64,000 nt of DNA from an uncultured bacterium (GTDB lineage Bacteria > Verrucomicrobiota > Kiritimatiellia > RFP12 > UBA1067): contig OW818680.1 in the NCBI GenBank assembly GCA_942493055.1, positions 4,544,174-4,608,173 of the forward strand, given 5' to 3'. Below the pieces are notes generated by a model. The model was given only the letters and a program-made list of their open reading frames with translations, ran no database searches and was not told where the DNA came from. Below, in pieces: positions 23,171-46,322 of the stretch (positions within the stretch are counted from its first letter, which is position 1; the number at the start of each line of letters is the position of its first letter). The translations under genes were made by a program, and so were the position numbers.

Positions 23171-23255
23171 TTCTCGCAAGCCAAATATGCCACAATGACC
23201 ACGACATTTGTAATGTAGCCCCCGAATAGTGGGGCATGCCTATTATAGGAGTGGA

Positions 23256-26200
23256 ATGGAAAATCTATCGTGGAATAAGACTGCAGATCATCCCAAGGAG
23301 GGTGGACGTGTGGAACTTGAGCCTGGTACGCGGTTGGGACGTTATGAGATTTTGCGACTGCTCGGACGCGGTGGCATGGGCCAGGTTTACCTGGCTCGGC
23401 ATGAGTTGCAAAAGACGCTGCACGCATTAAAGATCCTGCCGTCGGAGTTCTCGGGCCGCGCGGGCTTCGTGGAGCGCTTCCGTACGGAACTGCAGACCAT
23501 GGCGAGGTTGCAGCATTCAAACATCGTCCATGTCCAGTACTCAGACGTCGAGGCCGGGCTCTACTATCTGGTGATGGACTTCATCGCGGCCGACGGCACG
23601 GAGGAGCCGTACGACCTGGAGGAGGCGCTGGCAGTCGAGAAGCGGCTGGAGCCTGAGACGGTGAGGCGGCTGATGCTCCGGCTCTGCGATGGGCTCTCCT
23701 TCGCCCACGGCCAGGGCGTGGTCCACCGCGACCTGAAGCCCGCGAACGTCCTGCTGACCTCCAAAGACCTTTCTGCTGCTGACGTGAAGATCTGCGACTT
23801 CGGCCTGGCGCGGGTGGTCGGCGAGGAGCAGGTGCGCACGATGGTGGCGCAGAGCATGCAGCGTTCGATGTCCATGGGCGACCAGGACACCTTCACCGAG
23901 AAGAAGCGCTCCGAGCGCAGCAGCACCGGCTCCGTGATGGGCACCTACGGCTACATGAGCCCCGAGCAGGAGGAGGGCAAGCCCGCGGACGAACGCAGCG
24001 ACCTCTACTCGCTGGGCGTGATGATGTACCGCATGATCACCGGCCAGCGGCTGCGGGGCCGCGCCAAGGCGCCGTCGGCAGTCGTGCAAGGGCTGGACAA
24101 GGCATGGGACGCGATCATCGACAAGTGCCTGGAGAACGACCCTGCGGCACGCTGGCAGACTGCGGTTGCTCTGAAGGCGGCATTGGACGCTGGCGGGAGG
24201 GTCACGCAGGGCAGTTCTAAAGTTCTAAAGTTCGGGAGTTCTAAAGTTAAGGGGAACAAGGCGTGGCTTTGGCTGGCTGGCGCTGCGGTCATCGCCGTTG
24301 TCTCAATTTTGTCCGTCAGGGCAATTCATTCCAGCAACGCGAAACGCGCCGAGGCGGCCCGTGCGGCTGCGGCATCCGCCGCGCTCGACGCGGCGCAGCG
24401 CGAGAAGGTTGCCGGGCTCGAGGCTGCGGTGGAAGCGGCGCTGGCGGCGGGCGATTTAAAGACGGCCGATTCCAAGATCGCGGAGCTGGGGCAGGCCGGG
24501 GGCGCAACCGCGCTGCGCAAGCGTTACGAGTCCAAGGCCGGCGAGAGCGATACGAACAAGCGGAGCGCGGTGGCTTCAATGGCGCGCGAGGAGGCGATGA
24601 AACTGGACGCGGGACAGGGCTTCGGGGAGAAGCTCAAGGCGCTGGAGACGGCCTGGCGCGAAGCCGAGGCGGCGCGGCAGAGCCAGGGCTGGACTCAGGC
24701 AGTGACCGGCTATGACGCGGTCATTGCGTCGTCCAAGACGCTGAAAGATGCGGAGGTCTCACGCGAAGGCGCGAAGACGCGAAGAGGTGAAGCTGAGAAG
24801 GCCAAGTCTGACGCTGAGCAGTCCCAGTCCGCGACCGACGCAGCGGATCTTTATGCGGCTGGAGGGCGAGGCTGTGTCCGAGCCGCAGGAGCCTTTGAGA
24901 AAGGCGACTTCGATGTGGCATCGAAGGACTGGCAGGAAGCGGCGCAATCTTATGCCTCGGCGCAGAAGCGGGCACTGGCGGCCCAGGATTGCCGCAAGGT
25001 GAAAGAGTCGTTCGAAGAGGCGCTGGCGCGTGACCGCGCGCTGCTGGAGAAGTACGGAGGGTCAAAATGGGCCGAGGTGAAGCTTCAGCAGAAGGCCGGC
25101 GAAGCGTCTTCGTCTGACCCTGCGGAGGGTAGTCGCGCCTACGGATTGGCGTTGGCGGCACTGCCGGGGGCGGTGGCCGAGGCCGGGAAGGCTCAGCAGG
25201 CGGATGCCGAGTATGTGGCTGCGCAGAAAAAAGCGGCGGACGATAAAAAGGCGAAAGAGCAGGCCGAAGCCGAGCGTCTAGCGGAGGAGCAAAAAGCGAT
25301 TGCCGCGAAGGCGCAACGACAAAAAGACTTTGATGGAGAGATGGTTTCCGGCAAGTCGGCGTGGGATAAGGCTGACTACTCAACCGCCTACAAAGCCTAT
25401 AAGAAGGCATTAGTATTGTGCCCGGGTGATTCAGCCGCGCAAACGAATTATTGCCAGGTGGATGCGATGCTGTCGCGCCTGAACCCTTATCGTACCGCAA
25501 AGAAAGGATGCTGGGTCAAGCGGGCCTATACTACAAAAATGAAAATGTCTTTTCCTCTTGGATCAAATTCAACGACAACACAGGAGGAAATACAATTCTT
25601 GGATGTCGGGGAAGATGTAGTTGTGACGCGCAACACCCTTAAGTCCTCATCGTCAATGACGATTGCTGGAGGATATGCCAGCGAGACTGTTACGGAACAT
25701 ACTCAGAATATCAACGAAGCATTCGGTGAAGCGAAAAGTACTCCGATCAGACAAATCACAAATGGCAAAGATAGCACCGCATCAATTAAATCGACGATGG
25801 AAAAGCTTAAGACATTTGATGAAAAGAGGGAGTTTTTGGGTTGCGAGACGATCAGGATTGGAGCACAAGAATATACAACGAAGTGCCTTCTTAAATCGGA
25901 AAAGAGAGACTTTGGATCAGGGATGCAGACGGCTATGGAGACAAAATATTGGATTTCCGAGGATACAATAGCCCCAACATTAAAACATACGATCCGCGTT
26001 AAAGTATATAACAATTCTAACACATCTTTATTGTCTGAGTCGTTTTCAACGGTATCCCTTGTTTCATTATCGCAGGAAGATGTGACAGTCAATGGGCGGG
26101 TTTTGAAGTGCAGAAAAGAGGTTAGGGTGACAGAAAACCAGAAAGATGGAACAACGGGGACATTTACTTCCTGGGAGTGTTTAGACTACCCCTGGATCGG

Positions 26201-26288
26201 CATGGTCAAAAAGGAGTCTGTGATTAAAGGGAAGAACTTTACCTCAACTGCATCGGATATTTTAGAGTCGTTTGGGCTTGGGTCGTGA
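23256..26288 (+). CDS. Hanks-type Ser/Thr protein kinase - TM - long Ala/Glu coiled coil - unknown ~270-aa C-terminal domain
   Basis: ORF-track start GTG 23229; ATG 23256 preferred (RBS aggagtgg). Kinase motifs 'LGRGGMGQVYLARH', 'ALKIL', 'HRDLKPANVLL', 'DFGLAR', 'GTYGYMSPEQ'. TM 'AWLWLAGAAVIAVVSILSV'. N-terminal ~650 aa nearly identical to the next gene. Confidence 0.8.
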   Translation: MENLSWNKTADHPKEGGRVELEPGTRLGRYEILRLLGRGGMGQVYLARHELQKTLHALKILPSEFSGRAGFVERFRTELQTMARLQHSNIVHVQYSDVEAGLYYLVMDFIAADGTEEPYDLEEALAVEKRLEPETVRRLMLRLCDGLSFAHGQGVVHRDLKPANVLLTSKDLSAADVKICDFGLARVVGEEQVRTMVAQSMQRSMSMGDQDTFTEKKRSERSSTGSVMGTYGYMSPEQEEGKPADERSDLYSLGVMMYRMITGQRLRGRAKAPSAVVQGLDKAWDAIIDKCLENDPAARWQTAVALKAALDAGGRVTQGSSKVLKFGSSKVKGNKAWLWLAGAAVIAVVSILSVRAIHSSNAKRAEAARAAAASAALDAAQREKVAGLEAAVEAALAAGDLKTADSKIAELGQAGGATALRKRYESKAGESDTNKRSAVASMAREEAMKLDAGQGFGEKLKALETAWREAEAARQSQGWTQAVTGYDAVIASSKTLKDAEVSREGAKTRRGEAEKAKSDAEQSQSATDAADLYAAGGRGCVRAAGAFEKGDFDVASKDWQEAAQSYASAQKRALAAQDCRKVKESFEEALARDRALLEKYGGSKWAEVKLQQKAGEASSSDPAEGSRAYGLALAALPGAVAEAGKAQQADAEYVAAQKKAADDKKAKEQAEAERLAEEQKAIAAKAQRQKDFDGEMVSGKSAWDKADYSTAYKAYKKALVLCPGDSAAQTNYCQVDAMLSRLNPYRTAKKGCWVKRAYTTKMKMSFPLGSNSTTTQEEIQFLDVGEDVVVTRNTLKSSSSMTIAGGYASETVTEHTQNINEAFGEAKSTPIRQITNGKDSTASIKSTMEKLKTFDEKREFLGCETIRIGAQEYTTKCLLKSEKRDFGSGMQTAMETKYWISEDTIAPTLKHTIRVKVYNNSNTSLLSESFSTVSLVSLSQEDVTVNGRVLKCRKEVRVTENQKDGTTGTFTSWECLDYPWIGMVKKESVIKGKNFTSTASDILESFGLGS

Positions 26289-26346
26289 TGTTCCTGACTG
26301 GCCAAACGCAAGCAGATGTCAAAATAGCGAGAGGATCGAGTAATCG

Positions 26347-29300
26347 ATGAGTGACGGGCAACAGACGATGAATAATGATGTGACGCGGGCCGTGCCGGGC
26401 GGCGCGGGCCGGGCGGAGCTTGAGCCTGGCACACGGCTGGGACGTTATGAGGTTCTGCGCCTCTTAGGTCGCGGGGGCATGGGCCAGGTCTATCTGGCGC
26501 GACATGAGCTGCAGAAGACGCTGCATGCGCTGAAGATCCTGCCGTCCGAGTTCTCGGGCCGCGCCGGCTTCGTGGAACGCTTCCGCACGGAGCTGCAGAC
26601 AATGGCCCGCTTGCAGCATCCGAACATCGTCCATGTCCAGTACTCCGACGTCGAGGCCGGGCTCTATTACCTCGTGATGGATTTCGTGGCGGCGGACGGC
26701 ACCGAGGAGCCATACGACCTGGAGGAGGCACTGGCAATCGAGAAGCGGCTGGAGCCGGAGATCGTGAGGCGGCTGATGCTCCGGCTCTGCGACGGACTCT
26801 CCTTCGCCCACGGCAAGGGCGTGGTCCACCGCGACCTCAAGCCCGCGAATATCCTGCTGACGTCAAAGGATCTGTCGGCTGCGGACGTGAAGATCTGCGA
26901 CTTCGGGCTGGCGCGGGTGGTCGGCGAGGAGCAGGTGCGCACGATGGTGGCGCAGAGCATGCAGCGGTCCATGTCCATAGGCGACCAGGACACCTTCACC
27001 GAGAAGAAGCGTTCCGAACGTAGCAGCACGGGCTCTGTGATGGGCACGTACGGCTACATGAGCCCCGAGCAGGAGGAGGGCAAACCCGCGGACGAACGCA
27101 GCGACCTCTACGCGCTGGGCGTGATGATGTACCGGATGATCACAGGACAGCGGCTGCGGGGGATGGCCAAACCCGCCTCGCAGGTGGTGCCCGGGCTTGA
27201 TCCGGCATGGGACGCGATCATCGGCAAGTGCCTGGAGAACGACCCTGCGGCACGCTGGCAGACAGCGGCGGAGTTGAAAGCCTCCCTAGCGGGAGGGAGA
27301 GTGGCAGTCGGTAGTAGCAGTCGGCAGTGGAACCAGGCCGCGCTGTGGCTGGTGGGTGCGGCGGTTGCGGTCGCGTTGGGGTATGGGGCGTACAGGATGT
27401 ATGCGACCTATAGGGTAGAGATGGAGAGGGATAGGGCCGCCAGTGAGCAGACTGCGAAACTCGATGCGGCGCAGCGGGAGAAGGTTGCCGGGCTTGAAGC
27501 GGCGGCAGAAGCAGCGCTGGCCGCAGGGGATCTGGAGAAAGCGGGCACCAAGATCACGGAGCTGGGGCAACTCGGAGGGACACGCGTCGGCGTGTCCGAG
27601 CTGCGCAAGCGGTACGAGGCCAAGGCCGGCGAGCGCGAAGTGAACAAGCGGTACGCGGCTGCGTCGCTGGCACGGGAAGAGGCGCAGAAGCTGAACCCAG
27701 GCCAGGGCTTCGGGGAGAAGATCAAGGCTTTGGAGACCACGTGGTGCGAAGCTGAGGCTGCGCGTCAGAGCCAGGGCTGGGGCCAGGCGCAGACCGGCTA
27801 CGACGCGGTGCTTGCATCGTGCAAGGCGCTGGGTGAGTTGGATGTCTCGCGCAGAGGCGCAGAGGCGCGGAGGGGTGAAGCGGATAAGGCCAAGTCTGAC
27901 GCTGAGCAGGCCCAGTCCGCGACCGACGCAGCAGATCTTTATGCGGCTGGAGGGCGAGGCTGTGCGCGAGCCGCCGAAACCTTTGAGAAAGGTGAGTTCG
28001 ACGCGGCAGGCAAGGACTGGCAGGAGGCCGTTTCCGCATACACCTCTGCGCGGAAAAATGCAGTAGCAGCGCAGGATTGCCGCAAGGTGAAAGCCTCGTT
28101 CGAATCGGCGCTGGCGCGTGACCGCGCGCTGCTGGAGAAGCACGGCGGGGCAAAATGGGCTGAGGTTCAGAAACAGCAGAAGGCTGCCGAGGTATCGTCG
28201 GCTGACCCTGCCGAGGCTAGCCGAGCCTACGGATTAGCATTGGCAGCCTTGCCGGGAGCAGTGACCGAGGCGAAGGCCGCTGAGCAGGATCGGCTGGCGA
28301 AGGAGAAGGGTGATGCCGAGGCGAAGGCTGCGGAGCAGGATCGGCTGGCGAAGGAGAAGGGTGAAGCCGAGGCGGAGCAGCGGCGGCAGGCCTCAGAGCG
28401 TAAGACACGTGAAGAGAAAGAATCCCGTGATCTGGCCGAGGCGGCCTATACAGCGTGGGCAGCGAAGGCGCAACCGCTGGCAGAGCGTCTCGGGCGAGAC
28501 ATAACTTCGGTTAAAGGGGCTGCCGCGAAGGCGCTGCTAGCCGAGACGGATGCTATACTCATAGGGACGGACAAGCTGGATATTACTTACCTAACGTCCG
28601 CTAGCGTGTCTGGGTTGAAGGCACTCCAGACCAAGTTGCAAAGTCTGAAGGTCGGGATCAAGATCGGGTTCGAACCTGGAGACACGGAAACGGTTGATTT
28701 AGGTTCCGGCGTAAAAATCGAGCTGGCCTGGTGCCCAGCAGGTAGCTTTATGATGGGGAGCCCCTCCACTGAAGCGAACAGGGAGAGCGATGAGTCCCAG
28801 CACCGCGTGACGCTGACGAAAAGCTTCTGGCTTGGGCGCACGGAGGTAACGCAGGCGCAGTGGGAGGCGATCATGGGGAGCAACCCGAGCAAGTTTAAAG
28901 GATCAGATTTACCCGTTGAGACAGTGAGCTGGGACGACTGTCTGGCGTTTATCAGAAAGTTGAATGGAAAACTTGAAACTGGAAATTTGAATTTCCGCCT
29001 GCCCACAGAGGCGGAGTGGGAGTACGCTTGCCGGGCTGGGAGCACGGGTCCATATGCGGGAACGCTGGAGGAGATGGGCTGGTATTTTTCCAACAGCGGA
29101 AACACGATCCACGCAGTCGGACGCAAGTGCGCGAACGCCTGGGGACTGTACGATATGCACGGAAACGTCTGGGAGTGGTGCCAAGACTGGTATGCTGAGT
29201 ATCCTGCGGGTTCCGTGACAGATCCTGAGGGGCCTGCTTCAGGTGCTGGCCGTGTCCGCCGCAGCGGCGGGTGGAACATGAGCAAGGGGAACTGTCGATC

Positions 29301-30369
29301 CGCGGATCGGAACAGGCCTGGCCCGGGCATCCAAATCATCTACGTCGGCTTCCGCCTTGCGAGGAACGCATCGATAGACGAGCCTTCTACTGCTGATGCC
29401 AAGACCGAACAGCAGATGCAACACGAAAACCGGGAAGATGGCAAGGAACCTGTTGATGGGCAAGCATGGGTCTCGCCCTCTTCGGGCATGGAATTCGTCT
29501 GGATACCTGCCCTGAAGATCTGGGTGGGCAAGTACGAGGTGACAAACGGCGAGTATCGGAAGAAGGAGGCTGCGCACGACAGCAAGGATTACAAGGGGAA
29601 CAGCTTGAACGGCGACCGCCAGCCGGTGGTGCAGGTGAATTTCGACGATGCGAAGGCGTATGCCGCGTGGCTTACGGAAAAAGACAGAGAAAAGCTAGGA
29701 GGAAAGCGTTATCGGGTGATCTCGGAGATGGAGTGGCAGACTGTGGCGCAGTGCGGTGACAACAGGGAGTACCCATGGGGAAACGCGCTGCAGCCGAAGT
29801 ACGGAAACTATTATAAAACAGACGCTTATGATGACGGGTTTGTGGTTACGTGTCCCGTGGAACAGAGCGGCAAGAACGACTGGGGCCTTTACGGGATCGG
29901 AGGCAACGTGTGGGAGAGCTGCGCGATGGACGTCTCCGGCTCGTCGTTCGGGGCTTGGCGCGGCGCGTCGTGGGGCTACGACTATCCCGACGTTTTGCGG
30001 TGCGCGGCTCGCGACGGCGGCGGCGGATCGGGCCGCAGCTACTTCTACGGCTTCCGCCTTGTCTTGTCAGGTAACCAGCGAAGTGATGTTGATGAAATAT
30101 CCTCATGTGTTAGCCTGATCAGGAATGCACTCTACAAAGCTTGGAAGCAACCGAAACAAAGTGAAGCGGGTTCACGTCCGGCCAAACTTTATATTCGCCT
30201 TGATGCTTCAGGCAGATTCGTCAATTATCGTATTACTCAATCGTCAGGCAGCACTATCTTTGACACGAGCGTACTGAAGGCCGCAGCCAATTGCCCGCCA
30301 GTTCGTGATGTAACAGCAGGTTTTCTTAAAAAGCATGACGAACTTACAATCGAGTTCAGACTCGAATAG
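26347..30369 (+). CDS. Hanks-type Ser/Thr kinase - TM - coiled coil - two FGE-sulfatase (SUMF1/DUF323-like) domains - TonB_C-like C-terminal domain
   Basis: Same kinase motifs as the previous gene. FGE-like blocks 'VSWDDCLAFIRKLN', 'RLPTEAEWEYACRAGSTGPY', 'GLYDMHGNVWEWCQDWY', then a second copy 'GLYGIGGNVWESC'. C-terminus 'LYIRLDASGRFVNYRITQSSGSTIFDTSVLKAAANCPP' is TonB C-terminal-like. Internal 36-bp tandem repeat at about 28270-28370. Confidence 0.8.
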   Translation: MSDGQQTMNNDVTRAVPGGAGRAELEPGTRLGRYEVLRLLGRGGMGQVYLARHELQKTLHALKILPSEFSGRAGFVERFRTELQTMARLQHPNIVHVQYSDVEAGLYYLVMDFVAADGTEEPYDLEEALAIEKRLEPEIVRRLMLRLCDGLSFAHGKGVVHRDLKPANILLTSKDLSAADVKICDFGLARVVGEEQVRTMVAQSMQRSMSIGDQDTFTEKKRSERSSTGSVMGTYGYMSPEQEEGKPADERSDLYALGVMMYRMITGQRLRGMAKPASQVVPGLDPAWDAIIGKCLENDPAARWQTAAELKASLAGGRVAVGSSSRQWNQAALWLVGAAVAVALGYGAYRMYATYRVEMERDRAASEQTAKLDAAQREKVAGLEAAAEAALAAGDLEKAGTKITELGQLGGTRVGVSELRKRYEAKAGEREVNKRYAAASLAREEAQKLNPGQGFGEKIKALETTWCEAEAARQSQGWGQAQTGYDAVLASCKALGELDVSRRGAEARRGEADKAKSDAEQAQSATDAADLYAAGGRGCARAAETFEKGEFDAAGKDWQEAVSAYTSARKNAVAAQDCRKVKASFESALARDRALLEKHGGAKWAEVQKQQKAAEVSSADPAEASRAYGLALAALPGAVTEAKAAEQDRLAKEKGDAEAKAAEQDRLAKEKGEAEAEQRRQASERKTREEKESRDLAEAAYTAWAAKAQPLAERLGRDITSVKGAAAKALLAETDAILIGTDKLDITYLTSASVSGLKALQTKLQSLKVGIKIGFEPGDTETVDLGSGVKIELAWCPAGSFMMGSPSTEANRESDESQHRVTLTKSFWLGRTEVTQAQWEAIMGSNPSKFKGSDLPVETVSWDDCLAFIRKLNGKLETGNLNFRLPTEAEWEYACRAGSTGPYAGTLEEMGWYFSNSGNTIHAVGRKCANAWGLYDMHGNVWEWCQDWYAEYPAGSVTDPEGPASGAGRVRRSGGWNMSKGNCRSADRNRPGPGIQIIYVGFRLARNASIDEPSTADAKTEQQMQHENREDGKEPVDGQAWVSPSSGMEFVWIPALKIWVGKYEVTNGEYRKKEAAHDSKDYKGNSLNGDRQPVVQVNFDDAKAYAAWLTEKDREKLGGKRYRVISEMEWQTVAQCGDNREYPWGNALQPKYGNYYKTDAYDDGFVVTCPVEQSGKNDWGLYGIGGNVWESCAMDVSGSSFGAWRGASWGYDYPDVLRCAARDGGGGSGRSYFYGFRLVLSGNQRSDVDEISSCVSLIRNALYKAWKQPKQSEAGSRPAKLYIRLDASGRFVNYRITQSSGSTIFDTSVLKAAANCPPVRDVTAGFLKKHDELTIEFRLE

Positions 30370-30586
30370 GTAGAGCGCGTCCCTCCCTTGAGCGCGGTAA
30401 ATCCATCTTCCAGCGTGATTGCTGGGATACGCAGTTGCGGGTGGCGAGAGTTGCCATGAAAAACGGGAATATGTTCGCAACAATCCCGTGCGACGGGGGT
30501 TGGTTGCGTGACCGGACGCGCAACCCTCCTATGCTTTGCTCCGGAGGCCAAGCGCGCATCCTTCCGAATCAGTGCCGGAAAATGCG

Positions 30587-30730: not shown

Positions 30731-31072
30731 ATGGCAACTGATAAAGAGTTTTTGAGTTTGGAGGAGGTCGCAGATGAGATGGGGGTGACTTATCAGCTCA
30801 TTTATCGTCTCGTGCGCTCGGGTGAGTTGCCCGCCGCTCGGATCGGCAAGCTCTATCGCGTGTCGCGCTCGGATCTGGGTGAGTATCTGCAGCAGAGTAA
30901 AAAGGGTTCGTTCGAGGGCGGAACGTGCATGGCCTGCGGGACCTTCTATCGGAGTAAGGGGACGCTTCAACAGGCGTGCACGGTCTGCGGCGCTCCGGTC
31001 TGTTTTGATTGCTGGGTGCGTCAAGGTGTGCGGGAGTGCGCAGCGCACAAGAACGAAGCTGAAAAGAAATAA
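30731..31072 (+). CDS. Excisionase/MerR-family HTH DNA-binding protein with C-terminal Cys4 zinc ribbon
   Basis: 'LSLEEVADEMGVTYQLIYRLVRSGELPAARIGKLYRVSRSDLGEYL' is an Xis-type HTH. 'CMACGTFYRS...CTVCGAPVCFDCW...CAAH' is a zinc ribbon. Confidence 0.6.
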   Translation: MATDKEFLSLEEVADEMGVTYQLIYRLVRSGELPAARIGKLYRVSRSDLGEYLQQSKKGSFEGGTCMACGTFYRSKGTLQQACTVCGAPVCFDCWVRQGVRECAAHKNEAEKK

Positions 31073-34374: not shown

Positions 34375-35004
34375 ATGGCTTTTTTATTTATTAAGACGAA
34401 GAAGGAGAAGGCACGCGAGGTGCGTAAGGATCGCCGCCGCGCGTTCCGTCAGGCTGAGAATTCGATTCAGGATGTGAAGGACCGTGCCAAGCGCATGGAC
34501 AAGGATGCCGATGCCGACTGGCAGAAGGCGCGCGATGCGCTGAAGGAAGGCAAGAAGGCCGCGGCCCAGCGTGCGCTGACGAGCTATCGGGCTGCTCAGG
34601 TGCTGATGACCAAGCTGGAACAGAAACGGTGGGTCTTCGAGCAGTACCTGATGAAGATGGAGGCCGCAGGAACCGATGCCGAATTTGCGAATGCCCTTGC
34701 CTCGGTCAACAAGGTGACCGACATCAATCCTGAGATGGTCGAGGATGTCTTCGACACCGCCGGCGAACTGCTCGGCGAACAGCAGGACGCGGACCGTTTC
34801 TGGTCCTCCCTGTACGACAAGGAGATGGAAGGGGCGACCGGTTCATTGCAGGATCACATCCCCTCCATGGAAGAACTCAGCCAGGCGCTGGAACAGGAAG
34901 TCGCCGCTGAAATTTCAGGGAGCGGTGCCAAGACCGCCTCCGAGATGGAACGCCGCATCGGCTCAGGACAGGACAAGGTGCGCGAGATGCTCGGCGGGAA
35001 GTAA
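34375..35004 (+). CDS. ESCRT-III/Snf7/PspA-superfamily-like coiled-coil protein
   Basis: 209 aa. Basic N-terminus (KTKKEKAREVRKDRRR). 'KKAAAQRALTSYRAAQVLMTKLEQKRWVFEQYLMKMEAAGTDAEFANALASVNKVTDINPEMVEDVFDTAGELLGEQQD' parallels Snf7 'KKRYEKQL...EALENANTNTEVLKNM..AAKAMK...MDIDKVDELMQDIADQQELAEEIS'. Acidic C-terminus. Assignment by motif only. Confidence 0.45.
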   Translation: MAFLFIKTKKEKAREVRKDRRRAFRQAENSIQDVKDRAKRMDKDADADWQKARDALKEGKKAAAQRALTSYRAAQVLMTKLEQKRWVFEQYLMKMEAAGTDAEFANALASVNKVTDINPEMVEDVFDTAGELLGEQQDADRFWSSLYDKEMEGATGSLQDHIPSMEELSQALEQEVAAEISGSGAKTASEMERRIGSGQDKVREMLGGK

Positions 35005-39257: not shown

Positions 39258-42200
39258 ATGAATACTGACATTGATGAATCGATCGGCAATCAGAAAACCA
39301 TGGGCGGTGTGATTGAGACGGACGAAAGCAGCATAGGGGACAACGCCACCATCGGACGGCAAGGGATCACGCTGGGACATGTTGACCAGTATGAACTCGT
39401 CCGTGAACTCGGTGGTGGCGGCTTCGGTGTGGTCTTCCTCGCACGGGATACGGTCTCAGGGATCGAAGTCGCTGTCAAGGGGTTGCCGCCCATTGTGAAG
39501 AACAATGAGGAGGAACTTGAGCAAATCCGTCGTAATTTCGCCTTGGTCTCAAAGCTGCACCATCCGAATATCGCGGCTGCGTTGGTGCTTCATCGTGCAC
39601 GGGATGTTCATTACGAGCTTGAGCAGGTACGGCAGTCCCTGCGCGTGGTTTCCGGTGATACGCTGATGGTCATGACGTATGCCCCAGGGGTGACGCTCTC
39701 AAAGTGGCGCAAACAGTTTCCTGAAGGTCGTGTGCCTGTAAAGCAGGCTATTGATGTCTGCCAGCAAATTGCGTCAGCCATGGATTATGCCCATGGCGAG
39801 AAGGTCGTGCACCGGGATATTAAGCCGGCAAATGTCATGATTGAAACGCGCCGGAGGATGTCAGAGGCCGGGAAGGTGTCCTATGAAGAACTTCAGATGC
39901 GGCTTGCCGTGAAAGTGCTGGATTTCGGTTTGGCTGCCGAGATTCGTAGCAGCATGAATCGTGTGAGCCAGGCGACTGGCGATACGAGCGGAACGCGGCC
40001 TTACATGGCGCCGGAACAGTGGGCAGGAAAGAAGCAGGATGGGAGAACAGACCAGTATGCACTGGCAGTCCTTTTTTATGAATTGGTGAGCGGCGAGGTT
40101 CCCTTTGCAGGGGCGTTTGAGACGGGTGATCCGGTTGTAATGATGGCGGCTGTCGAACGAAACACTCCCGAGACGTTGCCCATGTTGTCGGCTGCGCAAA
40201 ATGCAGCTCTGGCGCGCGCCTTGTCAAAGAATCCTGCCCAGCGCTATGAGTGCTGTTCCGCCTTCGCGGAGGCGTTGTCAGGGATGCAAGTGAGTGTGGA
40301 GCACTCTGTCAATGCGCTGGGAAAAAATGGAGCGGAAATTATCAAGGCGGTGCAGACGTATAACAAGACGGTTTCCTGGGTGAGTCGTTTGCCGCTGCTA
40401 AGGTATCTCCAGATTGGACGAGAGTTGCTGGTGGACCTGCTTGCGGTCATCCCCCCTGTTTCACGTTTTGCTGATCGGGTTTTGGGAATGCTGGTAGCTC
40501 CGCGAGACACATGGAACTGGATTCGTTCAGAAAAAAAGAGTGCTTGGGAAATCTATCGAGGATACGCGTTGGCGCTTGTCGCGATCTCATTTCTGCCCTC
40601 CGTCTTCAATGCGATCCACTTGAGCAGATATACTTCGGGGTATTGGACGTTGGGGAGCAGATTGTCTTGTGTCCTTTTGAGGTATGTGTTGACGCTGGTC
40701 GGTCTTTTTGTTGTGGCAAAGATAATCGATGGACTGGCAGCAAAATTAGATGCCCAAAAAAAGTGCGCTTTCAAGCTGGTTTTCTTCTCCTTGGTCCCCG
40801 TATTTCTTGCAATGTCGATTGTTGGCTTTGGAGGCTTTGCTTGGTTGTATTGGCTGGCCTGGGTAGATGCGCTTGTTCTGCTCTATTTTGGAATACGCGT
40901 GCTGATGGAATGCCCAAAAGGGAAAGCGTATGCCTATACAGCTGTAACCGTGGCGCTCTTGGTGGGGTTAAATAGTAGTGTGAGCCATATTGTCATGCGC
41001 TCTGAACAGGGACTTCTGAGAGGGGGCTTCTCTTCAATCTGGAATACAACGAAAGTTCGTCCAACGGGCGGTGGCGAGTTTACATCAACCACCCCGCCCT
41101 CGACTCCGCGTGACCCAGATGCCCCACGTACACCCCAAAACCCTCAGTGGATGTTTATGCCAAGCAGGATCTATCCAGGAAGTGCTTTTCCGCCCATGAA
41201 CCTCCCAAAGGATGTTTGGTTGCCTCCTACTGCCCAGTGCATATTCATCCAGCGTGAATTCCCTTCAAATAGCCCGACCAATACGCATGCTATCTTCGGA
41301 TTGAGTTCGCAGTCGGAATTGAGTTCGTTTTGTGAGATGATGAAGACAAATGGCTGGAGAATCATCAGAATGGGAAGCCCAAACGGCCAGCAGTATGGCA
41401 GGATGGGGCCTCCTCACTTCTCCGCGTCATTTGCGAAGCCAAAGCGAATCACGACGCTTATGCAAAAGATGGATTTCAGTTTCGAATTGTTGGTTTACGG
41501 TCCTGAAGACGACGCCGGGGGTCTGGTTAAACCAGCGGACATTGCACTTGCGACCGTCAACGGCGAGCCGACTAAGCCATTCGATCCCGCTGCGGACAGG
41601 ATTGAAAAGATGGATCCGGAAAGGGCGGAAGCCATTCGTCTCATGAAGAAAAAGATAAAGCAGCAGGCCGATGAGGCCGATCAACAACTCGCGGCGGAGG
41701 CCTTAAACAAAAGTAAACTTGAAAAAGAGAAGGAGCTGGAGGCAGAGCGGTTGAAGACTGAAGAAGAGGCTCGGAAAATGGCGGCTGCGGCTGCGGAGGC
41801 GGAGGATCTTCGCCTTGCAGAGGAAGAGCGTCAGAAGGCTGAGGCCCGGCGTCAAGCGGAAGCCGCACGTGCAACTCAGCTCACGAATGGACTGCTTCTG
41901 GCCAAGCAGATGGTCGATCAAGAGGAGTGGGCTGATCTTCTTGTCCAGGCAAATGCACTCCTGGAACTGGATCCTCAAAACGCAACCGCTAAGAAATATA
42001 AAGGGTGGGCGGAGGACTATCTAAATATGCCGATCTTAAAATTGATTGCAATGGTGAACGGTAAAGAGGTCAATGCTCAAGTGAAGATTGATAATGAGGT
42101 AAGGCCTTCGCCTGTAAAGCTAATTATGGAAAGAACACAATACAGTGTTGAATTGTCTTATGAAGAAGGTGATAAAAAATATGAAGCGAAAGAGTTCCTT

Positions 42201-43055
42201 GTCATGAGCCCTGATTGGAAAGGGGTTCGGCCCAAGACAATCACGTTAAGAGAGGTGAAGCCAGTGATTGCTGCCATTCCGGAGACTGTCAGTACCCCTC
42301 AGACGCCAGAGCGCCCTGCTTATCTAGCAGAAGATAAACAAGGGGCGCCTCCTTCGAAATCTGAGCTCCCTGCTCAGCCTGTAGAAGGACAAGAGTGGGT
42401 GTCTCCTTCAACCGGAATGGTTTTTGTATGGGTAAAGGCGCTCAAGATATGGGTTGGCAAATATGAGGTGACGAACGCGGAATATCGGCGTAAAGTGCCG
42501 ACGCATAGCAGTAAAAATAAAACAGGGTCTGATAATCGAGAGTATACCCTGAATGGTGATCGGCAGCCCGTCGTGTTTATACATTTCGGCGAAGCAGTGG
42601 CTTATGCAGAGTGGCTCTCTCAGGCGGATGCGGGTAAACTTCAGCAGTTTCGGTATCGTCTGCCGACGATGACAGAATTCACAGACTGCATGCGATGCGG
42701 TGTTTTTTTAAGCACCTACCCGTGGGGTGAAACTTGGCCGCCTCCTGTTGGGCAGGCTGGCAATTATGATGACGAGAAAGTGATCGACTCCATTTTCATC
42801 GAAAACTATCGTGATGGCAAAGTTGTCACCTGTGGGGTTGAGCAGAGCGGAAAAAATGCTTGGGGTTTGTTTGGCGTAGGAGGAAATGTTTGGGAATGCT
42901 GCAGCACGGATTCATCGCGTTCGGAGTTTGGTGGCTGGCGAGGGGGATCCTGGGCTGATGCCTCCGCTGGGTATATGAAGTGCGACTTCAAAAGCGGTGC
43001 CGCTTCCATGGTGCGTAATGAGGAAAGCGGCTTCCGCCTTGTATTGTCGCGTTAA
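39258..43055 (+). CDS. Hanks-type Ser/Thr kinase - polytopic membrane region - coiled coil - C-terminal FGE-sulfatase-like domain
   Basis: Starts 'MNTDIDESIGNQKTM'. 'LGGGGFGVVFLARD', 'HRDIKPANVMI', 'DFGLAA', 'RPYMAPEQ'. Several hydrophobic helices at about aa 420-560. Glu/Lys/Ala coiled coil. FGE-like 'VFIHFGEAVAYAEWL', 'RLPTMTEF', 'GLFGVGGNVWECC'. Confidence 0.75.
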   Translation: MNTDIDESIGNQKTMGGVIETDESSIGDNATIGRQGITLGHVDQYELVRELGGGGFGVVFLARDTVSGIEVAVKGLPPIVKNNEEELEQIRRNFALVSKLHHPNIAAALVLHRARDVHYELEQVRQSLRVVSGDTLMVMTYAPGVTLSKWRKQFPEGRVPVKQAIDVCQQIASAMDYAHGEKVVHRDIKPANVMIETRRRMSEAGKVSYEELQMRLAVKVLDFGLAAEIRSSMNRVSQATGDTSGTRPYMAPEQWAGKKQDGRTDQYALAVLFYELVSGEVPFAGAFETGDPVVMMAAVERNTPETLPMLSAAQNAALARALSKNPAQRYECCSAFAEALSGMQVSVEHSVNALGKNGAEIIKAVQTYNKTVSWVSRLPLLRYLQIGRELLVDLLAVIPPVSRFADRVLGMLVAPRDTWNWIRSEKKSAWEIYRGYALALVAISFLPSVFNAIHLSRYTSGYWTLGSRLSCVLLRYVLTLVGLFVVAKIIDGLAAKLDAQKKCAFKLVFFSLVPVFLAMSIVGFGGFAWLYWLAWVDALVLLYFGIRVLMECPKGKAYAYTAVTVALLVGLNSSVSHIVMRSEQGLLRGGFSSIWNTTKVRPTGGGEFTSTTPPSTPRDPDAPRTPQNPQWMFMPSRIYPGSAFPPMNLPKDVWLPPTAQCIFIQREFPSNSPTNTHAIFGLSSQSELSSFCEMMKTNGWRIIRMGSPNGQQYGRMGPPHFSASFAKPKRITTLMQKMDFSFELLVYGPEDDAGGLVKPADIALATVNGEPTKPFDPAADRIEKMDPERAEAIRLMKKKIKQQADEADQQLAAEALNKSKLEKEKELEAERLKTEEEARKMAAAAAEAEDLRLAEEERQKAEARRQAEAARATQLTNGLLLAKQMVDQEEWADLLVQANALLELDPQNATAKKYKGWAEDYLNMPILKLIAMVNGKEVNAQVKIDNEVRPSPVKLIMERTQYSVELSYEEGDKKYEAKEFLVMSPDWKGVRPKTITLREVKPVIAAIPETVSTPQTPERPAYLAEDKQGAPPSKSELPAQPVEGQEWVSPSTGMVFVWVKALKIWVGKYEVTNAEYRRKVPTHSSKNKTGSDNREYTLNGDRQPVVFIHFGEAVAYAEWLSQADAGKLQQFRYRLPTMTEFTDCMRCGVFLSTYPWGETWPPPVGQAGNYDDEKVIDSIFIENYRDGKVVTCGVEQSGKNAWGLFGVGGNVWECCSTDSSRSEFGGWRGGSWADASAGYMKCDFKSGAASMVRNEESGFRLVLSR

Positions 43056-43079
43056 GGGTGACCGTGGTAGGTAACGACT

Positions 43080-46000
43080 ATGAATACTGACATTGATGAT
43101 TCAATCGGCAATCAGAAAACCATGAGGCGTGTTTCTCCGACTGAGGAACCCAGCATGGGGGAGAGCGACACAACAGGCGGACAGGGGATCACGCTGGGCC
43201 ATGTGGACCAGTATCAACTCGTCCGTGAATTGGGCGGCGGCGGCTTCGGCGTGGTCTATCTTGCGCGCGATACTGTTTCTGGCATCGATGTCGCTGTCAA
43301 GGGCTTGCCGCCGGTTGTGAAGAACAACGCGGAGGAACTGGATCAAATCCGCCGGAATTTTGCCTTGGTCTCCAAGTTGCACCATCCGAACATCGCGGCC
43401 GCGCTGGTGCTCCATCCTGCACGGGATGTCCATTATGAGCATGAGCAGGTGCGCCAGTCCCTGCGTGTGCTTCCCGATGATACGCTGATGGTCATGACGT
43501 ATGCTCCGGGGGTGACGCTCTCAAAATGGCGCAAGCAGTTTACCGAGGGTCGTGTGCCTGTCAATCTGGCCCTTGATATCTGCCGGCAGATCGCCTCGGC
43601 CTTGGATTATGCGCATGCTGAGAAGGTGGTGCACCGCGATATTAAGCCTGCCAATATTATGGTGGAGACGCGGGAGAAGGGGGCAGGGTTCGGGGTTCAG
43701 GGCTCAGGGGGCGGTGAACTGAGCTTGAAGGTGCTGGACTTTGGGCTGGCGGCGGAGATCCGCTCCAGCATGAACCGGGTCTCGCAGGAGAAGGGCGATA
43801 CGTCAGGCACACGTCCCTATATGGCACCCGAGCAATGGGCGGGCAAGAAGCAGGATGGCAAAACAGACCAGTATGCGCTGGCGGTGCTCTTCTACGAATT
43901 GGTGAGCGGGGAGGTCCCCTTCCTGGGTGCGTTTGAGACGGGGGACCCGATCATCATGATGACCGCAGTGGGACAGCGGGACCCGGATCCGCTCCCCATG
44001 TTGTCAGCGTTGCAAAATATGGCATTGATGCGCGCCCTCTCCAAGAACCCGGCCCAGCGGTATGACTCCTGTCTGGATTTCTGGGAGGCGTTGTCAGGGA
44101 TTCAGTTGAGTGTTGAGCACTCTGTGAAAGCGCTGGGAGAAAACGGGGAGAATATCGTCAAGGCGGTGCAGACGTTTAATAAGGCCGTCTCCTGGGTAGA
44201 ACGCTTGCGCATTCCTCACTATCTGCAGGTCGGAAGGGAGTTCCTGGTGGATCTGCTGAGAGTCGTCCCACCGGTATCACGTTTTGTTGATCGCATCCTG
44301 GGCACTATTATTGAGCCGAAACAGTCATGGATATCTGTGAAGGCGGAGCCGGGCACGATTTGGCAACTCTGCAAGCAATATGTTTTTGTGCTTGTGGCCG
44401 CCTCCTTGATCCCAGCCGTCGTCGATGCGTTTCATTCAAGCCGATATTCCTCTGGCTATTGGACGCTCAGTTCGATGCTGCTGCTCGTCCTAGGGCGGTA
44501 TCTATTGACCCTTGGAGGACTCTATCTCGGCGCACGACTCATCAGTGAACTGGCTCCGAAATTCGGGGCGCCAAAGGTCAGGGAGAACGCCTTTAAACTG
44601 GTTGTTTTCGCGCTCACGCCTGTTTTTTTGAGTTCTATTATTGGTTCCATGATTTATTTTCATCTACCCTATTGGCTGGGCTGGGGCTATGCAGCGTTCC
44701 TGCTCTATTGGGGTGTCAAGGTGTTGATGGACGCTGAGCAAAAAAAGGTATTCGCTTACGCCGCAGTTTCCTTTGCCCTCCTGGTCGCGCTTTACGGGAG
44801 TTTGGGCTATTTCTCCAGGCAGTCTGAACGAAAACTTTCAGTTTGGACATACCAAGCCAGAAGAGCTTGGGATAATAAATCGATTGCCAGTAAAATTCCT
44901 CAAAGACAGCAGGTTGCTCAACGGACCACGCCTCAACACCAGATGACTCAACGGACTCCACCGGTTCCACCAACACCTCTCCCCCCTGTTATTGATGATA
45001 ATCAAGCGGATACCTATTTCGAGTCGAGCGATATCGATCCTGACTCTGCCATTCCGCCCATGAACCTGCCGAGTGATATTTGGCTTCATCCCAAGACGCT
45101 GTGTATGCTTATCCAGCGTGAATTCCCGTCAGGCAGTCCGACCAATACGCTTGTCGTCTTTGGATTGGACTCACAGGCCGAGTTGAATATGTTCTGCGAA
45201 AAGATGAAGGAGAATGGCTGGCGTATCACCAAGATCGGCTATGCGAGCAAGCAGAACCGTGACTTGATCGCGAGTCAGGGAATATCGGCTTCATTTGCCA
45301 AAGCACGTAAGACGGCGACGCTTATACAAAGAAGAGATTATAGTTTTGAACTGGTGGTCTGCGGACCTGAGGACGAGTCCGTCTCTCTTGATAAGCCGCT
45401 TGACCCTGTCCCTAAACCTGTCATGATCGAGCCACCACAGAAGGTTTCGGAGCAGCCTATATCCAACGCGGTCAGTGATGAAGAGCGTCAGCAGAAGGTT
45501 GCAGAAGCCGCGCGCATCCTCATGATGCAACAACAGCAACAGGCGGCAGAGAAGGCCGCCAGCGAGAAGTTGGAAGCGCGACAGCAACAGGAGAATGCCC
45601 TGCGTCTTGCGGAGGAGAAAAGAAAGCAGGAGGCGTTGGACGCTGAAAAGAAACGAATCGAAGATGAGGCAAAAAAGGTAGCGGAAGAGCAGAAGCGCCT
45701 GGATGAAGAAAAGGCGAAGCTGGAAGAGGCCAAGCGCCTCGTTCAGGAGCAGAAGGAGAAGGAGGAACAGGCTGCCCTCGCAAAACAGGAGGAAGCGCTC
45801 CGAATAAAAAACAAACCAATGAACGACCTGAAAAAAAATCCCATGGACAGGACGGAACTCGCAAAATTGAAGCCCTTGATTCAGGCCAGCAATGACCCTG
45901 ATGAGAAATGCAGATGGAGTGTCATTTATTGCCTCGGGATGTTGGCGATGGGGAATACGAAAGAGGGTTATGATTTGCGAATAGGAATCAACCGTGTTTA

Positions 46001-46322
46001 TCCGCGCCAGACCCTTGCCGATTTGTCAGACAGGAGCCTCTCTGACGAATGCAACAAATGTGAGGGCGGACGCTGCAAGCAGGTTTGCTTGAAATGTAAA
46101 GGTGCGGGAAGATGCTCTGCTTGTGAAGGGGCTGGAAGAGGTGCAAAAGTAGGCCTTGACGGACAGCAGCTTCGTTGTCTCATCTGTACGGGCAACGGAA
46201 CCTGCAGAGAGTGCAGCGGGACAGGGTCTCGCTCCGAAGTCTGCAAGGCGTGTGCCGGGAGAGGCTATTCATTTTCCATGACCAAATGTAAAAGTCTCTA
46301 CATGGGGTTATTGGGAGAGTAA
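43080..46322 (+). CDS. Hanks-type Ser/Thr kinase - polytopic membrane region - coiled coil - HEAT-like segment - DnaJ-type CxxCxGxG cysteine-rich zinc finger
   Basis: Starts 'MNTDIDDSIGNQKTM'. Paralog of 39258..43055 over the first ~600 aa. C-terminus 'CNKCEGGRCKQVCLKCKGAGRCSACEGAGRG...CLICTGNGTCRECSGTGSRSEVCKACAGRGY' has four CxxCxGxG repeats. Confidence 0.75.
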   Translation: MNTDIDDSIGNQKTMRRVSPTEEPSMGESDTTGGQGITLGHVDQYQLVRELGGGGFGVVYLARDTVSGIDVAVKGLPPVVKNNAEELDQIRRNFALVSKLHHPNIAAALVLHPARDVHYEHEQVRQSLRVLPDDTLMVMTYAPGVTLSKWRKQFTEGRVPVNLALDICRQIASALDYAHAEKVVHRDIKPANIMVETREKGAGFGVQGSGGGELSLKVLDFGLAAEIRSSMNRVSQEKGDTSGTRPYMAPEQWAGKKQDGKTDQYALAVLFYELVSGEVPFLGAFETGDPIIMMTAVGQRDPDPLPMLSALQNMALMRALSKNPAQRYDSCLDFWEALSGIQLSVEHSVKALGENGENIVKAVQTFNKAVSWVERLRIPHYLQVGREFLVDLLRVVPPVSRFVDRILGTIIEPKQSWISVKAEPGTIWQLCKQYVFVLVAASLIPAVVDAFHSSRYSSGYWTLSSMLLLVLGRYLLTLGGLYLGARLISELAPKFGAPKVRENAFKLVVFALTPVFLSSIIGSMIYFHLPYWLGWGYAAFLLYWGVKVLMDAEQKKVFAYAAVSFALLVALYGSLGYFSRQSERKLSVWTYQARRAWDNKSIASKIPQRQQVAQRTTPQHQMTQRTPPVPPTPLPPVIDDNQADTYFESSDIDPDSAIPPMNLPSDIWLHPKTLCMLIQREFPSGSPTNTLVVFGLDSQAELNMFCEKMKENGWRITKIGYASKQNRDLIASQGISASFAKARKTATLIQRRDYSFELVVCGPEDESVSLDKPLDPVPKPVMIEPPQKVSEQPISNAVSDEERQQKVAEAARILMMQQQQQAAEKAASEKLEARQQQENALRLAEEKRKQEALDAEKKRIEDEAKKVAEEQKRLDEEKAKLEEAKRLVQEQKEKEEQAALAKQEEALRIKNKPMNDLKKNPMDRTELAKLKPLIQASNDPDEKCRWSVIYCLGMLAMGNTKEGYDLRIGINRVYPRQTLADLSDRSLSDECNKCEGGRCKQVCLKCKGAGRCSACEGAGRGAKVGLDGQQLRCLICTGNGTCRECSGTGSRSEVCKACAGRGYSFSMTKCKSLYMGLLGE

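Follow-up and report, generated by a model that had tools for sequence, protein, structure and literature searches.

The 64-kb stretch of DNA analysed here (the window; contig OW818680.1 of assembly GCA_942493055.1, positions 4,544,174–4,608,173, from an uncultured bacterium of the class Kiritimatiellia) carries five membrane-bound Hanks-type Ser/Thr kinases, K1–K5 in 5'→3' order. They surround genes for a Snf7-family protein, a AAA ATPase, an SPFH protein and a zinc-ribbon protein with an FHA domain (the adaptor, gene at 32855). Short threonine-containing peptides (tags) of the form S-Φ-G-x-x-x-T, Φ being a hydrophobic residue, recur in the kinases. The arrangement of tagged kinases around this module suggests that a membrane-remodelling machine, of a type so far known only from archaea and eukaryotes, is directed by phosphothreonine (pThr) signalling. 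Taken by themselves the kinases are unremarkable; what is new is the tag and, above all, that tagged kinases and an FHA adaptor repeatedly accompany a bacterial Snf7/AAA/SPFH module. The tag motif and the link of tagged kinases to such a module appear to be undescribed; no description of the motif was found in the literature searched, the search being limited and its result an absence of evidence. Judged by homology, 23.2–51 kb of the window is one copy of a conserved module known from Lentisphaerota, Kiritimatiellota and Verrucomicrobiota. Every long open reading frame (ORF) at 23.2–46.3 kb is on the + strand.

Kinases and tags of the window

All five kinases are encoded on the + strand around the module, as initially annotated, and match Pfam Pkinase (PF00069) with E values of 1e-39 to 1e-43 and 134–148 bits against a cut-off of 31.7. 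Catalytic motifs, read in the translations, are complete in K1–K5: GxGGxGxV, A(L/V)K, HRD(L/I)KP(A/S)N, DFG and (S/A)PE.

K1, 23229..26288, + strand. Hanks kinase (Pkinase E 1.4e-42), one transmembrane (TM) segment (residues 336–354), Ala/Glu/Lys-rich coiled region with weak TPR. Start codon GTG 23229 or ATG 23256.
K1 tag, 23871..23894, + strand. SMGDQDTF (within SMSMGDQDTF), in an insert of the activation segment between DFG and SPE.
K2, 26347..30369, + strand. Hanks kinase, one TM segment (331–349), coiled region, two FGE-sulfatase-like domains (Pfam E 4e-63), C-terminal TonB_2 (E 2e-9).
K2 tag, 26974..26997, + strand. SIGDQDTF (within SMSIGDQDTF), in the activation-segment insert.
K3, 36336..38996, + strand. 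Three N-terminal tags, Hanks kinase, one TM segment, Pro/Ala/Ser-rich low-complexity linker, FGE-sulfatase domain (E 3e-31), DUF1080-like domain.
K3 tag array, 36345..36473, + strand. SIGNQKTM (36345–36368), SLGSVQTM (36393–36416), SLGSVKTM (36450–36473).
K4, 39258..43055, + strand. Two tags, Hanks kinase, 5-TM Yip1 domain, coiled coil, FGE-sulfatase-like domain (Pfam, TM prediction).
K4 tags, 39279..39353, + strand. SIGNQKTM (39279–39302), SIGDNATI (39330–39353).
K5, 43080..46322, + strand. Two tags, Hanks kinase, 5-TM Yip1 domain, coiled coil, five C-terminal CxxCxGxG repeats.
K5 tags, 43101..43175, + strand. SIGNQKTM (43101–43124), SMGESDTT (43152–43175).

The pattern S[ILM]GxxxT has 10 six-frame matches in the 64 kb, 9 of which lie in frame inside the kinases (K3 three, K4 and K5 two each, K1 and K2 one each). 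By shuffling, 0.23 matches are expected in the five kinases. Seven occur in the N-terminal tails (252 residues), where 0.03 are expected and the maximum in 20,000 shuffles is 2. The common N-terminal peptide SIGNQKTM, noticed earlier in the three downstream kinases, is present in K3, K4 and K5. The tag inventory of the initial annotation holds for the tail copies of K3–K5; it lacked the two further copies in the activation-segment inserts of K1 and K2.

The kinases form related groups: K1 and K2 are 75% identical over 690 amino acids (aa), K4 and K5 54% over 960 aa, and K3 is ~40% identical to K4/K5 in the kinase domain. With one or five membrane passes, the C-terminal domains are placed on the opposite side of the membrane from the kinase. 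The architecture assigned at first (kinase, single TM segment, coiled coil, sensor) stands in outline, with a cytoplasmic kinase and an extracytoplasmic C-terminus. In detail, K1 lacks a recognisable sensor domain (Pfam finds no domain in its C-terminal 310 aa), K3 has the low-complexity linker in place of a coiled coil, and K4 and K5 cross the membrane five times through Yip1 and not once. The FGE-sulfatase (one or two copies), TonB_C-like, DUF1080-like and CxxCxGxG domains are present as annotated, on K2 (two FGE, TonB_2), K3, K4 and K5. The match of K3 to 3keto-disac_hyd/DUF1080 is weak yet full-length (E 0.016). The repeats of K5 were read in the sequence and are not a Pfam match; a K5-type kinase with equal Cys repeats is also encoded in a distant related locus (L008, below).

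Catalytic FGE has a pair of catalytic cysteines near the domain C-terminus. The FGE-like domains of K2, K3 and K4 have a single Cys in the C-terminal part and not a CxxxxC pair, as read by eye in the translations. At their periplasmic ends the module kinases carry a shuffled assortment of sensor-type domains, namely FGE-like (non-catalytic in appearance), DUF1080-like, TonB_C, Sel1 and Cys-rich repeats. An FGE/DUF1080 kinase architecture is in itself ordinary for bacteria of the Planctomycetota–Verrucomicrobiota–Chlamydiota (PVC) group. Single-pass kinases with periplasmic FGE-like and DUF1080 domains are described as common in Planctomycetota (PMC11032199), and FGE-sulfatase is named among the partner domains of bacterial kinases in a kinase atlas preprint (bioRxiv 10.1101/2025.01.12.632604).

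Tags in related loci and in the kinase family

Related loci were taken from contigs of adaptor relatives and from a scan of one genome per species ('Lentisphaeraceae' and Lentisphaerae metagenome-assembled genomes, MAGs). The adaptor family is small (15 clusters), and an exact look-up of the window's adaptor gives no record. The tag census covers 23 module-linked kinases with a complete N-terminus, K1 and K2 of the window included. The strict form S-[ILMV]-G-x-x-x-T occurs in one to three copies in the tail of 16 of the 23, for example SLGDRATM/SMGGVPTM, SIGDERTF, SIGLERTV, SVGNMRTM/SMGDMRTI, SVGTDKTI and SIGDMRTM/SLGEVRTM. Five more kinases have the relaxed form [ST]-Φ-[GDSN]-x-x-x-T-Φ (TINDAATM in L008; TMGNWKTM, TISGRRTL, TMDGMRTV and TMSGRMTM in L020), which brings the total to 21 of 23. 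The two without a tail tag are K1 and K2 of the window. K1/K2-type kinases of L002 have the motif both in the tail and in the activation-segment insert (inserts SLGDHATV and SIGLSLTR).

SIGNQKT[MV] opens K3-type and K4/5-type kinases in the window, L001, L006/L009 and L012 despite the ~40% identity of their kinase domains, and orthologous K3 tag arrays occur in L006, L009 and L012. Tagged loci span adaptors 25–53% identical to that of the window and at least three kinase subfamilies. Absence of the motif from orthologues had been named in advance as evidence against a functional tag; one to three copies of S-Φ-G-x-x-x-T were found in L001, L002, L004, L006, L010, L012 and L013, and the relaxed form in L008 and L020. 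Within the module, 39 motif matches fall in 21 kinases, and none in the Snf7, SPFH, AAA, HTH and p46642 families of the module.

The motif extends well beyond the module. A family search with K3 residues 1–345 yielded 5446 kinases, and tails were analysed for the best 120 of the 5446. Their sources are MAGs of Lentisphaeria, Victivallales, Kiritimatiellae and Verrucomicrobiota, and their C-terminal domains are of many kinds. In 28 of the 120 the strict motif stands upstream of the Gly-rich loop; a variant of it is seen in most of the remainder, e.g. D-[IL]-D-K-T-[IM]-P-P ... D-D-V-T-M-P-G-K-R. The dipeptide T-Φ occurs 194 times in the 113 usable tails against 62 expected. Residues enriched around the Thr are Ser at −6, Asp/Gly at −4, Asp at −2, Lys/Pro at −1, Met/Leu/Ile/Val at +1, Pro/Arg at +2 and Gly/Pro at +3. 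Tags of this kind characterise a large kinase family and are not private to the module.

Linkage of kinases, adaptor and module

The core block, identified by BLAST of locus ORFs against the window proteins, consists of genes for an HTH_17 protein, a Zn-ribbon-SPFH protein, a 32855-like adaptor, a Snf7-like protein of 207–209 aa, a AAA ATPase and one to five kinases. The Zn-ribbon-SPFH gene is kept in all loci; the HTH_17 gene was found in the window, L001, L002, L004, L006, L007, L010–L012 and L020. Two loci are distant. L008 was reached via its Snf7-like protein, which is 64% identical to that of the window, the adaptor being 25% identical. L020 (GCA_024712465.1, 1–20603) was reached through P0222, whose Snf7-like protein is likewise 64% identical to that of the window. 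Both keep SPFH, FHA, Snf7, kinase and AAA genes. The core of L020 is again surrounded by five kinases, which belong to a different kinase subfamily. A Peptidase_U49 gene is present in L020 and L008.

At least one kinase is encoded in every FHA-bearing locus with downstream sequence (window, L001, L002, L004, L006, L008, L010, L012, L013, L020 and the P0007 contig). L007, from a Verrucomicrobia MAG, has HTH, SPFH, Snf7, AAA and other small genes but lacks both FHA and kinase genes. The two are therefore gained and lost in step, though only one clear case of joint absence was seen. Recurrence of such kinases near FHA/AAA genes in related genomes, proposed earlier as a check, was observed: genes for a AAA ATPase, an ESCRT-III-type protein, an FHA protein and a membrane kinase adjoin one another in the window and in no fewer than nine further loci. 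The chromosomal position of the module differs between MAGs.

A gene for an AAA_14/DUF4143 ATPase is inserted within the module in L001 (6342–7553) and L004 (15924–17222). In L001 it adjoins a truncated K1-like kinase fragment, 94% identical to K1, a sign that the set of kinases has been rearranged recently between strains that are almost identical.

Tags as putative phosphorylation sites

The tags are probably phospho-acceptor sites, as judged by position and composition. The motif also occurs in the activation segment of K1/K2-type kinases (two loci), a classical place of autophosphorylation. The residue that follows S-Φ-G-x-x-x is Thr in 67 of 71 cases and Ser in 1 of 71, though Ser is as common as Thr in the tails. 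Many Hanks kinases prefer Thr. The upstream acidic residues and the Met/Leu/Ile/Val at +1 resemble the preference of PknB, for which the kinase atlas reports acidic residues N-terminal to the acceptor and a favoured Gln (wild type) or Met (R87A mutant) at +1 (bioRxiv 10.1101/2025.01.12.632604).

FHA adaptor

Adaptor, 32855..34348, + strand. N-terminal zinc ribbon, disordered linker (31–82), Ig-like beta-sandwich (~88–185), helical segment, FHA domain, Cys-rich C-terminal beta domain.
FHA domain of the adaptor, 33677..34054, + strand. Residues ~275–400; G299-K300, S326-K-F-H329, S355-T356-W357-G358.

The AlphaFold model of the adaptor (16-sequence alignment; predicted local distance difference test score, pLDDT, 76) has the zinc ribbon, the disordered linker, two beta-sandwiches split by the helical segment and the Cys-rich C-terminal domain. 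Weak matches to Pfam FHA (PF00498) were obtained for 13 of 16 family members (best E 1.3e-4); the L008 and L020 orthologues likewise have weak FHA matches. The adaptor-family profile gives a marginal match to ArnA among PDB sequences, driven mostly by the zinc ribbon; the FHA domain was settled by fold search. The alignment shows no variation at G299, S326 and H329; the residue after G299 is Lys or Arg, and position 356 is usually Ser or Thr. By eye, G299-K300 and S326-x-x-H329 were equated with G69-R70 and S85-x-x-H88 of Rad53 FHA1, and the position of W357 with its N107. On the structural model, the domain is predicted to be a true FHA fold with most phosphate-binding residues and an atypical peptide-contact loop.

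The adaptor linker is the only non-kinase carrier of the motif in the module. Four divergent orthologues have it: SIGEAPTS, TLGETPTL, TVDETPTS and SLGDIPTR, at residue 49 in P0007, residue 55 in P0009 and P0010 and residue 60 in L004 (9623–11230). At the same place (residues ~42–50), [DE]-L-P-T-[QE] is conserved in the window's adaptor and those closely related to it. From these motifs, the adaptor itself may be a kinase substrate.

Snf7-like, AAA and SPFH proteins

Snf7-like protein, 34375..35004, + strand. Putative Snf7-family ESCRT-III protein, 209 aa; Pfam Snf7 (PF03357) E 1e-3, 19.2 bits against a cut-off of 27.3.
AAA ATPase, 35190..36329, + strand. Single-domain classical AAA ATPase of the Cdc48/Vps4 class, helical N-terminal region of ~100 residues; Pfam AAA E 7.7e-36, AAA_lid_3.
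SPFH protein, 31166..32836, + strand. Double zinc ribbon (DZR), SPFH/Band_7 domain, coiled coil; Band_7 (PF01145) 36.9 bits against a cut-off of 23.6, E 5e-9. No TM segment predicted.

The match of the Snf7-like protein itself to Pfam Snf7 lies below the cut-off; among its relatives, 62 of 66 match Pfam Snf7 (best E 5.6e-8), and PspA_IM30 is not among the top families for any of the 66. Its top PDB sequence match is yeast Snf7 (E 0.075). In the AlphaFold2 model shorter helices come after a long helical hairpin (helices at 9–57, 61–97, 101–115, 125–150 and 165–207), and Foldseek returns CdvB2, CdvB, Snf7, Asgard ESCRT-IIIB and PspA with probabilities of 0.93–0.99, all at E > 0.1. The family is large (~700 clusters). 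The protein is 82–98% identical in loci where the adaptor is 40–53% identical, and no relative was found in viral contigs.

The AAA ATPase matches the NCBIfam models CDC48 (2.4e-61) and CdvC (9.5e-58, residues 81–367 of 370, 196 bits against a cut-off of 650), both below cut-off. Its best PDB matches are the D2 domains of p97/VAT, and an exhaustive HMMER search returns a list dominated by multi-domain Cdc48-like proteins, uninformative as to its nearest outgroup.

Proposed mechanism and its weighing

A four-step docking model is the favoured explanation. First, an envelope signal would activate a kinase. Second, from the position and make-up of the motif, the kinase would phosphorylate its own tag Thr within the consensus [S/T]-Φ-[G]-x-x-x-T-Φ-[G/R/P], present in 1–3 copies in the cytoplasmic N-terminal tail; in some lineages it would also phosphorylate the like motif in the adaptor linker. 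Third, and most weakly, the FHA domain of the 32855 protein would bind the pThr tags and so bring adaptor, SPFH scaffold and Snf7 polymer to the membrane site of kinase activation. Fourth, by analogy with Vps4/CdvC, the AAA ATPase would remodel or recycle the polymer. Autophosphorylated tags read by the FHA adaptor would thereby couple envelope sensing to Snf7 polymer assembly. The full docking model is tentative, its probability a little short of evenly balanced.

Several findings weigh against it. K1 and K2 of the window have no clear N-terminal tag and carry the motif in the activation-segment insert instead. The tag is family-wide, T-Φ being present at least once in 103 of the 113 tails and twice or more in 66, and two strongly tagged kinases stand in unrelated contexts, one adjoining a transpeptidase (penicillin-binding protein, PBP) gene, the other dnaA and dnaN, with no FHA or Snf7 gene near either; the module therefore need not contain a reader dedicated to the tag. 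The adaptor of the window has no Pfam FHA match at E ≤ 1. In canonical FHA domains a conserved Asn of the beta6–beta7 loop contacts the peptide backbone; it is replaced here by Trp (W357, codon 33923–33925) in the window, by Phe in L008 (8453–9988), by Tyr in L020 (8400–9944) and by Gly, Cys or His elsewhere. Most FHA domains select a pT+3 residue, and the tags have no consistent one (Pro, Gly, Ser or Arg at +3). No phosphatase domain, PP2C included, is in the gene list of any locus examined. The AAA ATPase is not separable from Cdc48 D2-type domains in profile and PDB comparisons, and its residues 1–100 have no Pfam match, whereas Vps4/CdvC ATPases have an N-terminal MIT domain that binds ESCRT-III tails.

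The initial annotation had tied FHA docking to the conserved pThr-binding residues. Gly-[Lys/Arg], Ser326-x-x-His329 and Ser/Thr356 are kept; the Asn is gone. Aromatic residues in its place in three divergent lineages may mark a distinct FHA subfamily with altered peptide recognition. With such an atypical peptide-contact loop, binding specificity is not predictable from canonical rules. Overall, the interpretation first given to the tags is plausible at the level of sequence, passing cleanly in the orthologues and partly in the FHA residues.

The chief alternative is that the tags are autophosphorylation or regulatory sites (e.g. pseudosubstrate, activation control) of a large PVC kinase family with no specific tie to the 32855 adaptor, the kinases regulating the module by phosphorylation of other residues or of the HTH regulator. 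A motif that is family-wide, borne by kinases in unrelated contexts and identical in the activation segment is what such a family trait would give, and an FHA domain without the canonical Asn accords with it. It accounts less well for the near-exclusive Thr, which fits the demand of a pThr-specific reader (though the preference of many Hanks kinases would give Thr anyway), for the joint gain and loss of FHA and kinase genes with the module, and for the motif in the adaptor's own linker. This alternative is considered rather unlikely.

An anti-phage or abortive-infection role of the whole module, kinases included, in which the membrane is damaged or sealed and no housekeeping envelope-repair or vesicle system is involved, is improbable. 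It is favoured by a TIR-8xMP (ThsB-like) gene directly upstream, by the different chromosomal places of the module in different MAGs, by generic matches of kinase and AAA genes to the defence models PD-T4-6, mad6 and IetA, and by the Peptidase_U49 gene in L008 and L020. The PADLOC matches are, however, generic (kinase, AAA, HTH), with none for the SPFH, FHA, Snf7, p46642, p47587 and p48770 proteins, and the viral contigs hold no relatives; these results therefore lend no support to an origin from phage or to a defence system already known. For a defence gene, the strong conservation of the Snf7 protein, far above that of the adaptor, would be unusual.

Recent duplication or gene conversion among paralogues could have left the shared N-terminal peptide as a relic with no function. 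The paralogy is evident in the identities of K1/K2 and K4/K5 given above. At the DNA level, the conservation reported earlier was recovered: a 21-mer is the same in K4 and K5 and has three synonymous mismatches in K3, which is largely due to the paralogy of K4 and K5. Over the first 15 codons of K4 and K5 (39258–39302 and 43080–43124), 13 of 14 codons are identical against 0.54 gene-wide, the highest value along the genes together with one other segment. Yet the tails hold two or three copies that differ in codons and in the residues at x positions, the motif survives in subfamilies ~40% identical and in loci with adaptors 25–50% identical while the remaining tail diverges, and tags are enriched ~200-fold over shuffles. 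A functionless relic is disfavoured as very improbable. The 5' codon identity of K4 and K5 may reflect recent paralogy or gene conversion plus ordinary 5'-end constraint and not a separate DNA element.

A nucleic-acid element (translation-initiation or regulatory RNA site) in the first 21–45 nt of K3, K4 and K5 is barely credible: the K4/K5 codon identity of 0.93 at this end speaks for it, but the DNA similarity of K3, K4 and K5 begins at the ATG with unrelated upstream regions, the K3 copy has its three synonymous changes, the peptide pattern persists in the second and third tags although their codons are unrelated, and a scan of metagenome contigs with a degenerate DNA pattern for SIGNQKTM gave four matches, all due to chance and outside kinases, which is uninformative on tag specificity.

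Other genes of the module and its flanks

HTH_17 protein, 30731..31072, + strand. First core-block gene; excisionase-type, Cys-rich C-terminus; Pfam HTH_17 E 5e-14.
Second block, 46642–47562, + strand. Zn-ribbon and helical protein.
Second block, 47587–48780, + strand. Secreted protein with C-terminal TM segment (TM and signal segments predicted).
Second block, 48770–49681, + strand. Lipoprotein.
Second block, 49687–50328, + strand. LA_2272-repeat protein (NCBIfam LA_2272 repeat).
Second block, 50473–50982, + strand. Protein of 169 aa.

Orthologues of 46642, 47587, 48770, 49687 and 50473 make up the second block, which stands upstream or downstream of the core. They adjoin the core in L001 (907–5332), L004 (18598–21233), L008 (15818–19324), L011 (336–5055) and L012 (12514–16377). 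That five genes, a secreted protein and a lipoprotein among their products, travel with the core suggests that the system spans the envelope. Zinc ribbons recur in the HTH protein, the SPFH protein, the adaptor, the 46642 protein and some kinases. The 46642 protein resembled an ESCRT-III protein by eye and was considered as a second paralogue; this was rejected (hhalign probability 0.5% against the Snf7-like family, no PDB sequence match).

Directly upstream of the module, at 18379–19431 on the − strand, is a gene of defence-like look for a protein with a TIR domain (ThsB-like, Pfam ThsB_TIR E 7e-8) and an 8xMP octameric membrane-protein domain (E 3.5e-24). Two paralogues with a zinc ribbon, GYF_2 and multiple TM segments, one also with DUF4234, are encoded at 19666–21288 and 21315–22535, and a 188-aa single-TM protein at 22604–23170, between them and K1; these three genes are without counterpart in the related loci. 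Further upstream, 231–17919 holds a gene cluster for five SASA-type carbohydrate esterases, together with a GHL6 hydrolase, a Peptidase_C25/Laminin_G protein and a DUF6288-HEAT protein; such a set is typical of PVC bacteria that degrade glycans. At 50000–64000 the GC content drops from ~0.58 to 0.43–0.50, a tyrosine-recombinase (phage integrase family) gene is present at 59576–60706 and most ORFs have no Pfam match. This region may be a separate mobile island.

Comparison with known systems

Archaeal ESCRT neighbourhoods include membrane kinases and phosphatases, with an FHA protein in a haloarchaeal clade and a Zn-ribbon-SPFH-coiled-coil protein in a methanogen clade; phosphorylated proteins are suggested there as the cargo recognised (Makarova et al. 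2024, PMC10936438). The archaeal 'Main', 'Halo_FHA' and 'Meth_adaptin' systems resemble the module of the window in gene content: ESCRT-III-family gene, single-domain AAA, membrane kinases, FHA protein and Zn-ribbon-SPFH. They differ in host, which is a PVC bacterium here, and in the lack of a phosphatase gene in the loci examined. The adaptor here combines Zn-ribbon, Ig, FHA and Cys-rich domains, whereas the archaeal one is FHA plus CdvA-like, and the kinases here, unlike those of the archaeal systems, have C-terminal periplasmic FGE, DUF1080 or TonB_C domains.

Among bacteria, an ESCRT-III-superfamily protein is paired with Band_7/SPFH (PspA-SPFH, YdjI), sometimes with AAA+, and sporadic Snf7/AAA+ pairs occur, as do transfers of Vps4-like genes (e.g. 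to Opitutus) with snf7 lost (PMC11237479). In contrast to PspA/Vipp1 systems, the Snf7-like family here matches Pfam Snf7 and not PspA_IM30, and the partner set of FHA adaptor, Hanks kinases, SPFH and envelope lipoprotein block is not among the contexts given in PMC11237479. The accessible parts of PMC11032199 and of the kinase atlas report neither S-Φ-G-x-x-x-T N-terminal tags nor linkage to Snf7, AAA, SPFH and FHA genes.

Three further systems offer partial likenesses. Mycobacterial PknB with its FHA partners (FhaA, GarA, Rv1747, EmbR) may be seen as a functional analogue of the kinase/FHA pairing; PASTA sensor domains are absent here, the FHA domain lacks the canonical Asn, and the output is an ESCRT-III/AAA module and not cell-wall or tricarboxylic acid (TCA) cycle enzymes. 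In type VI secretion (T6SS) of P. aeruginosa (PpkA, Fha1, PppA, ClpV), a TM Hanks kinase with a periplasmic domain acts on an FHA scaffold and through it on a membrane machine with a AAA+ ATPase. The likeness of the PpkA-Fha1-ClpV pathway to the module is by analogy only: T6SS genes and a PP2C phosphatase are absent here, ClpV belongs to another AAA+ clade, and the polymer is Snf7-like and not a TssBC sheath. Sulfolobus ArnA (zinc ribbon plus FHA), which goes with the ArnC/ArnD kinases, is a small protein that controls archaellum and DNA-damage genes; the 32855 protein has Ig-like, helical and C-terminal domains in addition, and its gene neighbours are those for Snf7 and AAA proteins.

Significance

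A Vps4-type partner for ESCRT-III 'appears absent in bacteria' according to a 2025 review (PMC7619361), and ESCRT components beyond PspA were held not to be identifiable there (PMC10936438). The ~700-cluster Snf7-like family pairs a Snf7-family protein with a classical AAA ATPase in bacteria. One widespread variant adds an FHA adaptor and sensor kinases whose peptide tag is simple and open to mutation. Should the tags be no more than general sites of autoregulation, what is left is a short linear motif, new but unsurprising, in a PVC kinase family that has expanded, and of use for annotation.

A bolder reading is that PVC bacteria own a genuine ESCRT-type machine (Snf7-family polymer, Vps4/Cdc48-class AAA ATPase, SPFH scaffold, Ig-FHA adaptor) targeted by pThr and not by ubiquitin. 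Envelope-sensing kinases would write the repeated S-Φ-G-x-x-x-pT-Φ tag on their own N-termini and on the adaptor linker, and the atypical FHA domain, in which an aromatic residue stands for Asn, would read the tag and nucleate the polymer at the signal site. This is judged unlikely. If true, the kinases would be the functional equivalent of ESCRT-0/I, and the kinase/FHA-linked ESCRT logic proposed for archaea would extend to bacteria. If the tags are a recruitment signal, the long-standing question of what tells prokaryotic ESCRT-III polymers where to assemble would become testable, and the module would be a bacterial counterpart to the kinase/FHA-linked archaeal systems, so far inferred from genomes alone.

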